A stretch of DNA of 31,516 nucleotides, taken from a virus. Position numbers and translations under genes: made by a program. The stretch lies in the IMG/VR virus record IMGVR_UViG_3300020724_000020. The stretch is one strand, 5' to 3'. The notes below the pieces were generated by a model. The model had not been told where the DNA came from. It did no database searches and worked only from the letters and a program-made list of their open reading frames with translations. The stretch's first letter is position 1, and each line of letters begins with the position of its first letter. Below, piece by piece: positions 29,040 through 29,600 of the stretch.

Positions 29040-29600
29040 AATTATTCATCTTAATAACGTATATATTTCGACGGAAAGAAAACGTGAATCTTAACTTGAG
29101 GTTTGAATCCAGTTCGCCTAAAAAAGAATTGGCAGTCAACTAAAAGACTTTATCAATAAAGTAGGATGTCTAACCGAGAGATAGGCAGGGCGTTATCTAC
29201 CAGACAGATAACTGAACCTTATAAATCCTTTATTGGAATCCAATATTGGATTGGCTGGTGAAGATTAGCTTAAATAAGATATCCGTTATTAAGAGTGAAA
29301 CGTGAAACACTTAAGGTTTTCTTACTCTTTTTTCTACCATAAAAGGAGAGTTTCATGCAGATGATATTCTGTAGGTATGATTTACAGACCTCAAATAAAG
29401 TAAATCTGTTTAGAGGATAACACATAACCCTTGGTTTGGAAGCACCTTCAACTTCATACGAAACTTACATCAGTGGGAGTTATTAAGTCTTGGAAGTTCG
29501 TAAAAATGGTCATAACCCTTTGACCCAACTATGTAAGTTAAGACTTACGTAAGTCTGGAAAAAGCCACCCAATATGAATAATTTTGAGTGGCTTTTTTAA
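29040..29600 (+). ncRNA. candidate structured non-coding RNA or long leader (~550 nt ORF-free, higher GC, several perfect palindromes, ends in terminator)
   Basis: no ORF >=60 aa on either strand; hairpins GTTATCT-accagac-AGATAAC, AATCCAATATTGGATT, GTAAG-ttaaga-CTTAC overlapping AGACTTACGTAAGTCT; class unknown. Confidence 0.3.
29563..29598 (+). terminator. terminator-like AGCCAC-19 nt loop-GTGGCT + T6
   Basis: 6-bp stem, large loop, T-run. Confidence 0.4.

Follow-up and report, generated by a model that had tools for sequence, protein, structure and literature searches.

The window analysed here, 31,516 nt of viral DNA (IMG/VR virus record IMGVR_UViG_3300020724_000020) on a contig that we assign to a giant freshwater phage (jumbo/megaphage lineage), carries on its + strand an element that is very probably (we put this at roughly 0.8) an independently transcribed gene for a trans-acting, highly structured non-coding RNA (ncRNA) of a new family. 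Sequence comparison directly supports the conservation of this RNA at the nucleotide level in other phage lineages, the maintenance of its helices by compensatory substitutions, and its independence of any particular neighbouring gene. It would be a new family within the large structured phage RNAs, and the lineage that carries it is that of the freshwater jumbo/megaphages. An earlier inspection of the letters of this DNA (the sequence-only reading) had proposed either a structured ncRNA or a regulatory leader in this region; in essence this observation was correct, although the mechanics of a regulatory leader find no support.

Conservation and folding of the RNA

No open reading frame (ORF) of 60 aa or more is present on either strand of the 647 nt at 29002-29648. 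The sequence-only reading was correct in calling this region ORF-free and mistaken in calling it the sole long stretch of this kind; four others of at least 300 nt occur in the window, namely 30368-30837 (470 nt), 27717-28122 (406 nt) and two further stretches, so that it is instead the longest. Each of its six frames contains 11-19 stop codons of mixed types, which rules out stop-codon reassignment as the cause of the closed frames. The six-frame translations had no Pfam match at E ≤ 10, and a LuxR-type helix-turn-helix remnant, suspected from "SNREIGRAL" in frame +3, was without support at the same threshold. ARAGORN detected neither tRNA nor tmRNA in the window, as had been noted from the letters. 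The GC content of 29033-29598 is 0.341 versus 0.268 window-wide; it is well above the background, as claimed, and comparable or higher values are found in other segments (for instance 0.35-0.37 in 18401-19600). The minimum free energy (MFE) of the + strand, -144.1 kcal/mol, is the lowest among 58 segments of the same size, and its folding z-score is -4.3 to -4.7 (-2.95 minus the terminator), against a background of -0.9 ± 1.2; that of the - strand is -2.7.

The comparator contigs, all from metagenome assemblies (L0xx; W denotes the copy of the window phage), were taken from relatives of the convergent 98-aa protein (30071-30367, -), which are 59-80% identical to it. By sequence, homologous regions are recognizable in five other phage lineages, clearly in L029, L032 and L036 and more weakly in L033 and L046. 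A syntenic homolog of the RNA region is found in L029/L030/L031, in L032 and in L047, a partial copy close to L032; the nhmmer E-value was 1e-64 for L029 and for L032. In L036/L037/L038 (60% protein identity) the homologous place is a 1.1-kb gene-free gap, where two covariance models (CMs) built from the close homologs gave collinear matches on the correct strand (R2, 32.7 bits, E 7e-7; R1, 15.9 bits, E 0.003). A four-sequence profile reached E 1e-111 for L036 and 2e-7 for L033; in L033/L034 this match covers the 5′ part and is followed by a weak collinear match to R2. L046 possesses the motifs and helices at matching offsets, and L044/L045 and L040 are possible further members. The RNA unit measures 470-590 nt across the members.

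The identity of the RNA between W and L029/L032 is 65-68% at the nucleotide level, with invariant blocks of 15-25 nt, and the indels among homologs are mostly not multiples of 3. The upstream membrane protein shows only 26% amino acid and 48-50% nucleotide identity in the same comparison, and the downstream 85-aa protein is alignable only at its C-terminus. Since the RNA is better conserved than its neighbours, selection would appear to act on the RNA rather than on them. The locus itself is near-identical (≥99.6%) in several lake metagenome assemblies, the population contigs revealing two single-nucleotide polymorphisms (SNPs) in the region: 29357 G>A, which removes the ATG of a 21-codon ORF (this ATG is lost in 4 population contigs), and 29543 A>G, which converts an A-U pair to G-U. 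Searches with exact conserved patterns (four in IMG/VR, and also in GTDB genomes) yielded no member and zero or chance matches only, one of which fell inside a 233-aa ORF; a degenerate 16-mer of a conserved block had just 13 chance matches in the entire IMG/VR collection, and blastn against GenBank phages found no match.

RNAalifold predicts from W, L029 and L032 a consensus structure of 131 pairs in 18 helices, in which 94% of cells are paired. Nineteen pairs have changed on both sides, compared to 8.6 ± 2.3 in column shuffles (none of 500 attained 19); in slid controls, where the partners were moved by 1-3 columns, the number was 1-3. Pairs kept by compensatory changes, the general mark of a structured ncRNA, are therefore found here, with the proviso that the sequences are few and also supplied the structure. 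Helices H4, H6 and H10 could be placed in six lineages, and H15 in seven sequences, each at a corresponding distance from the 5′ box, and their pairs are canonical with very few exceptions; in these and in H7′ the pairing is kept in 6-7 lineages with three to four pair types per position. H7′, one of the hairpins singled out in the sequence-only reading, has been kept through compensatory changes in all but one of the six lineages. The structured-ncRNA half of that reading's guess is supported, and its suggestion to combine an Rfam scan with covariation analysis proved the appropriate check. Conservation blocks coincide with helices and with loop or junction sequences, the latter being CUAUAA (H4 loop), CAGUCAACUnAAAGACU, CAGGGYG, CGUGAAA (H10 loop), GGAAGCAC..AACUUCA and AUUAAGUCU (H15 loop). 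By a tally from the pair table, G-U pairs make up about 11% of the paired cells; as these would be A-C mismatches on the opposite strand, the + strand would be the functional one, and an element acting at the DNA level is disfavoured.

Alignments made with MAFFT alone misplaced the stems of distant members, and helices were therefore tabulated by hand, with string searches as a check; CM-derived alignments contained junk rows and were left out of the counting. A long-range helix in the single-sequence MFE structure (29049-59/29284-94) has two U-U mismatches in relatives and was replaced by the local hairpins H3 and H10.

A promoter-like box, AAC(C/T)TTT and ACTATA(T/A)(A/T)T separated by 11-13 nt, lies directly upstream of each member (W, L029, L032, L036, L033, L046 and L044) and is found once in the window at ≤3 mismatches. 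With the box at 29000-29029, the element begins about 40 nt upstream of position 29040, where the sequence-only reading had placed its start. In L046 a similar box stands ahead of a tRNA gene, in keeping with a promoter that serves RNA genes, and we infer a promoter function for the box of the window; GRACTATAWWT is not enriched in the window, hence no claim of a general phage promoter is made. At the other end stands the stem plus T6 already recognized from the letters, a GC-containing stem and U-run with three compensatory pairs among W, L029 and L032. The 3′ ends of L036, L033 and L046 likewise consist of a stem plus U-run, non-homologous and with a stem sequence that varies between lineages. 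The downstream genes encode 85 and 56 aa in W, 62 aa followed by a tRNA in L036, and 49 and 112 aa in L033, and L046 has none on that strand. Because box and terminator are kept while the flanking genes change, the RNA would form an independent transcription unit.

According to the mechanism that we propose, transcription would start at the box (29000-29029) and stop at the RNA's own terminator (29558-29598). The transcript would adopt a multi-domain fold, with a 5′ domain (H3-H7′ plus H10) and a 3′ domain (H14-H17) probably joined by a loop-to-strand pseudoknot, and would act in trans during infection as a folded RNA, with no coding role and no cis control of an adjacent gene. The invariant loop motifs (CUAUAA, CAGUCAACUnAAAGACU, CGUGAAA and AUUAAGUCU) would make tertiary, intermolecular or partner contacts, and a translation-related partner (tRNA, ribosome or protein) is possible. 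By analogy with GOLLD and ROOL we favour, with low confidence, the idea that the RNA may be a folded scaffold or assembly, or part of a ribonucleoprotein acting on the translation apparatus during infection; a ribozyme is also conceivable. Few ncRNAs above ~500 nt with numerous conserved helices are known from bacteria and phages, and where a function has been established they act as ribozymes or belong to the core machinery.

Several points weigh against an independent, trans-acting ncRNA gene. The covariation statistics are inflated, the structure having been predicted from the same three sequences, and significance was judged by shuffled and slid controls, not by an R-scape-type test; it is for the first of these reasons that hairpins were located through conserved anchors in the distant lineages. 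Only six lineages are available, three of them close to each other, and L033 and L046 depend on weak E-values and manual alignment. The central part (29325-29410) and the long-range pairings are without covariation support. Promoter, transcription start and transcript ends are all deduced from the DNA. The "tRNA island" context is seen only in relatives, the window having none, and only size, host type and genomic niche link the RNA to GOLLD and ROOL.

Features of the putative RNA gene

The features of the gene are listed in Table 1.

Table 1. Features of the putative RNA gene and its flanking signals, from 5′ to 3′
Feature	Position	Strand	Remarks
Promoter-like box	29000-29029	+	AAACCTTTTTT-N-ACTATATTT; "-35-like" AAC(C/T)TTT, extended "-10-like" ACTATAWWT
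RNA gene (putative)	29033-29598	+	About 565 nt; end is the terminator U-run, start placed ~7 nt past the -10-like box
H3	29058-29086	+	5′ hairpin round conserved CGACGG loop; three two-sided pair changes among W, L029, L032
H4	29109-29132	+	CCAGUU (loop ..CUAAAA..) AAUUGG; loop motif CUAUAA recurs
Conserved block	29133-29152	+	CAGUCAACUAAAAGACUUUA; includes short helix H5 (AGUC/GACU)
H6	29167-29187	+	UGUCUA (9 nt) UAGGCA, then conserved CAGGGYG
H7′	29192-29212	+	GTTATCT-accagac-AGATAAC; loop CCAGAC
Hypervariable insert	29213-29271	+	Contains W-specific palindrome AATCCAATATTGGATT
H10	29289-29314	+	UUAAGAGU (loop GAAACGUGAA) ACACUUAA; flanked by conserved CCGUU and GGUU
H11	29325-29348	+	CUCUUUUU..AAAAGGAG; 3′ arm Shine-Dalgarno-like
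3′-domain core	29412-29456	+	Most conserved part, GAGGAUAAC..AUAACCCUUGGUUUGGAAGCACC..AACUUCA; includes hairpin H14 and GUUUGG
H15	29457-29502	+	11 bp with bulge; closes loop with conserved AUUAAGUCU (29482-29490)
H16	29508-29525	+	GGUCA (8 nt) UGACC; base-pair probability 0.96
H17	29534-29547	+	UAAGU (UAAG) ACUUA; overlapped by palindrome
Intrinsic terminator	29558-29598	+	GAAAAAGCCACCCAA..UUGAGUGGCUUUUUU; hairpin plus T6
Motif CAGUCAACU			Motif of the RNA, named together with AUUAAGUCU

The stem of H3 is weaker in W, and the GACGG of its loop is kept in L036 and L033. Positions 2-4 of the H4 stem show three to four canonical pair types in six lineages, pairing never being lost, and the inner positions of H6 are likewise canonical throughout six lineages with three to four pair types. 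The block between these two helices is invariant in W, L029 and L032, and an identical 17-mer is present in L036. The stem of H7′ is swapped for UUUAC/GUAAA in L036 (its register re-read by hand), AAACC/GGUUU in L033 and UUUACC/GGUAAA in L046. Its loop can pair with GUUUGG (29434-29439); such a partner lies 22-31 nt ahead of H15 in all but one of six lineages, and the two covary (CCARAC with GUUUGG, CUAAG with CUUGG, UAAAC with GUUUG); we regard this as a candidate pseudoknot that would join the 5′ and 3′ domains.

Length and sequence of the hypervariable insert vary among W, L029, L032 and L036, and its closing helix, H9, has one compensatory pair. The stems of H10 differ wholly by lineage (AAAGUA/UACUUU in L036, CAUCAG/CUGAUG in L046) and the loop stays CGUGAAA-like. 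H11 is retained in L029 and L032 through one-sided changes and one two-sided change. The 3′-domain core is near-invariant in W, L029, L032 and L047 and recognizable in L036. H15 comprises 5-11 bp in the seven sequences, with 66 of the 67 listed pairs canonical, multiple pair types, and the loop motif in all. The stem of H16 is invariant except for one change from G-C to G-U, and it thus shows no covariation and is merely consistent with the structure. H17 reads UAGGC..GCUUA in L029, L032 and L047, with one compensatory and one wobble change, and the SNP at 29543 leaves it paired.

Besides H7′, the inverted repeats named in the sequence-only reading were all recovered: AATCCAATATTGGATT (29237-29252), AGACTTACGTAAGTCT (29541-29556) and GTAAG..CTTAC (29535-29550), along with the two related AACGTGAA segments (near 29081 and 29299). 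AATCCAATATTGGATT and AGACTTACGTAAGTCT are the only palindromes of at least 16 nt with more than two G/C in the window.

Alternative explanations and known large RNAs

The RNA could have escaped the Rfam models as a highly diverged member of a known family, either ROOL (about 580 nt) or GOLLD, in the latter case the variable 5′ half. A similar size, the phage origin and the tRNA/GOLLD neighbourhood in relatives speak for this, but we consider it most improbable. No Rfam family matched the whole window at the gathering score, and the 851-nt region 28900-29750 gave noise only at E ≤ 10; at E ≤ 1 neither GOLLD nor ROOL was matched in L029, L032, L047 and L036, where only junk or terminator-type sub-threshold matches appeared. 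As a positive control, the same scan recovers GOLLD (RF02032) in L033 with 289.9 bits (3339-3745, -). On this contig about 1.2 kb, occupied by protein genes and a tRNA, separates the GOLLD unit from that of the window-RNA homolog, and the window RNA has a promoter-like box and terminator of its own.

ROOL (RF03087) is roughly 580 nt long, similar to the window RNA. Most known ROOL RNAs come from Firmicutes-type and rumen sources, and the window family occurs on freshwater megaphage-like contigs of ~27% GC. GOLLD and ROOL are phage or prophage RNAs near tRNA islands which, as recent work showed, form RNA-only nanocages and whose function is unknown (PMC12286853). GOLLD resembles the window RNA in being a large ornate phage ncRNA near tRNA genes and shares an RNA island with its homolog in L033; it differs in showing no sequence or structure match, in being a separate transcription unit there, in its other conserved motifs, and in size, since many GOLLD members exceed 800 nt (PMC12286853) and the window family measures about 470-590 nt. 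The likeness to ROOL extends to the frequent position by tRNA islands, the multi-hairpin architecture with pseudoknots, and the lack of a known protein partner or function (PMC12286853), yet no CM match to the window RNA was obtained even at permissive thresholds. OLE, about 600 nt in length (PMC9723947), and raiA, large bacterial RNAs whose function is at best partly known, are among the few ncRNAs in which numerous helices as well as unpaired nucleotides are conserved; unlike the window RNA, they are chromosomal with characteristic gene neighbours, and neither model matched in the window. The phage csRNAs of Fremin et al. (2023) are intergenic, covariation-predicted RNAs of 29-151 nt from IMG/VR (PMC10690425), a collection in which the conserved blocks of the window RNA have no true match.

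A further-reaching proposal, which we think rather unlikely, is that GOLLD and ROOL are joined by a third class of large "ornate" phage RNAs, founded by the window RNA, specific to freshwater mega/jumbo phages, encoded by a separate gene within their RNA island and endowed with a biochemistry of its own. Among the options for the latter are RNA-only self-assembly, ribozyme activity and a factor directed at tRNA or the ribosome. If true, a third unrelated family, housed together with GOLLD in one phage, would occupy the niche of GOLLD and ROOL, the "RNA islands" of huge phages would hold more than tRNAs, and an independent system would be at hand for the role of such RNAs in infection. The segment from box to terminator (about 565 nt) offers a compact, delimited construct for structure determination.

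An element acting as DNA (an origin, a packaging site or an operator cluster for dimeric proteins) is suggested by the two perfect 16-nt palindromes, which lack a spacer, cannot form full RNA hairpins and are typical of protein-binding sites, and by a second repeat-rich non-coding stretch nearby. The chance of this is, in our view, remote: neither palindrome is conserved, a population SNP turns an A-T of the palindrome into G-T, the conserved helices contain many strand-specific G-U pairs that would be meaningless in duplex DNA, and all copies lie between a promoter-like box and a terminator.

The other half of the sequence-only reading, a cis-acting leader (riboswitch, attenuator or leader-peptide switch), would control read-through of the terminator into 29649/29751-29906 and 29911-30081. 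It draws on the position of the terminator upstream of two Shine-Dalgarno (SD)-bearing genes, on an SD-like AAAGGAGAG that in W is held in a hairpin and followed by the 21-codon ORF (29355-29420), and on the palindrome overlapping H17 just ahead of the terminator. The homologs leave this hardly credible. The downstream genes differ in every lineage and are missing from that strand in L046, and a relative of the 85-aa gene is found in a tight leaderless operon in L008/L009. SD-like sequence and ORF are confined to W; SD, ATG and palindrome are absent from L029, L032 and L047, and the population contigs mentioned above have lost the ATG. An antiterminator/terminator switch had been read into the palindromes, but AGACTTACGTAAGTCT is the one lacking in these three relatives, AATCCAATATTGGATT lies within the hypervariable insert, and no conserved alternative pairing with the terminator is seen. 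Moreover, 560 nt is far above known leaders, and no riboswitch model matched.

The suggestion of a degraded intron or retron-like RNA fails as well, as Rfam gives no signal and neither flanking exons nor a reverse transcriptase are present; the upstream ORF is closed by a stop codon of its own, and the flanking genes encode unrelated small proteins. Least credible of all is a pseudogene, or overlap with a real antisense gene intact in relatives, although the sequence-only reading had named an intact gene in relatives as what would refute it: antisense ORFs do cover the homologous region in L029 (106 aa) and L032 (126 aa), one of them called as a gene by the source pipeline, but they are without a Pfam match and unrelated to each other (no BLASTP alignment at E ≤ 100 despite 74.5% identical DNA, hence in different frames), which makes them chance ORFs, while W, L036, L033 and L046 have no ORF above 51 aa, the indels mostly break a reading frame and the conservation blocks track helices and loops.

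Genomic neighbourhood

The gene order in the L029 group, L032 and the partial L047 is membrane protein, RNA, a gene of 85-108 aa, a gene of 56-59 aa, and the convergent 98-aa gene. In the distant lineages the RNA lies in gene-free "RNA islands" along with tRNA genes, and whereas the window is devoid of tRNA genes, the homologs in L036, L033 and L046 are within a few hundred nt of them. The order in L033 (NCBI assembly GCA_025355525.1), on one strand, is tRNA, GOLLD, two small genes, tRNA, a conserved 80-nt element, the homolog of the window RNA, two small genes and tRNA; its tRNAs are at 1023-1096, 2398-2482 and 4855-4927 (-). The ~80-nt element stands between a tRNA and the promoter-like box in L033 (~2215-2295), L046 (~1410-1490) and L044 (~1760-1840; all -), and also in L045. 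In L033 it reads UAUGCAUGUGGUCCGAGUCUGUCUCCAAAGGUUAAGUCGUAGGAAACGUUGCAGAUACCUAAUGAGCCACACAAUCUC, with a closing stem GUGUGG/CCACAC; it had no Rfam match at E ≤ 1 and is a candidate small structured RNA. L032 has a second gene-free gap (4001-4906, 905 nt) containing a weak R2 match (4404-4513, -; 10.5 bits), which could be another RNA or chance.

The window encodes many small proteins from SD-bearing genes, a papain-like peptidase, and a 428-aa protein (18515-19801, +) with major vault protein (MVP) shoulder, Vault_3 and SPFH-like domains. Proteins on IMG/VR jumbo-phage contigs, up to 222 kb in length, share 71-77% identity with the latter, and those of the uncultured phages LR756500, LR756501 and LR756503 (462-735 kb), which have been called megaphages (PMC9723777), share 47-51%. 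Taken together, these features suggest that the window belongs to a very large phage. No homolog of the RNA was found in LR756500 and LR756501 within ±20 kb of the MVP-like gene, the search being confined to those flanks. In the IMG/VR relatives reached through the MVP-like and 264-aa genes, synteny breaks down past about 24015 and the RNA is missing, and the same synteny walk in JGI metagenomes gave at least four short contigs among the matches listed. Two upstream proteins, of 178 and 111 aa, are orphans, each having only its own cluster. The 264-aa protein (21498-22292, +) is encoded by the best-conserved gene of the neighbourhood, with 71% identity to its counterparts in L013 and L014; four metagenome contigs encode versions with 62-76% identity. 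It had neither a Pfam nor a PHROG match.

The end of the L014 locus (20070-20780, +) encodes the N-terminus of a TonB-dependent-receptor/SusC-like protein, its signal peptide and carboxypeptidase-regulatory-like domain having been judged by eye. Megaphages have been reported to carry SusC-like auxiliary genes (PMC9723777), and the presence of one in this relative hints at a Bacteroidota host.

Downstream of the RNA, one population contig, L015, has a 4-nt deletion (29861-29864) and a SNP (29869) within the 85-aa ORF (29649-29906), whose frame would be shifted; the real start of this ORF is probably the SD-preceded ATG at 29751, and the gene may be dispensable or mis-called. A 48-aa ORF (30449-30595, -) is homologous to a 52-aa ORF in L032 (1744-1902, +), upstream of the 98-aa gene, and the pair may represent a conserved micro-gene. 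Strongly negative folding z-scores also occur at 19801-20361 (-5.1) and in 200-nt segments of 27101-27400 and 27701-27900 (-4 to -6.5); these are probably terminators or intergenic hairpins, the first of them following the MVP-like gene. The gene-poor stretch 30368-30837 (470 nt) contains a (TGTA)n run near 30540-30560 and, at about 30690-30720 and 30758-30790, direct repeats of AAAATCAAATTTTTTTTTTGGGGAAAAAT.

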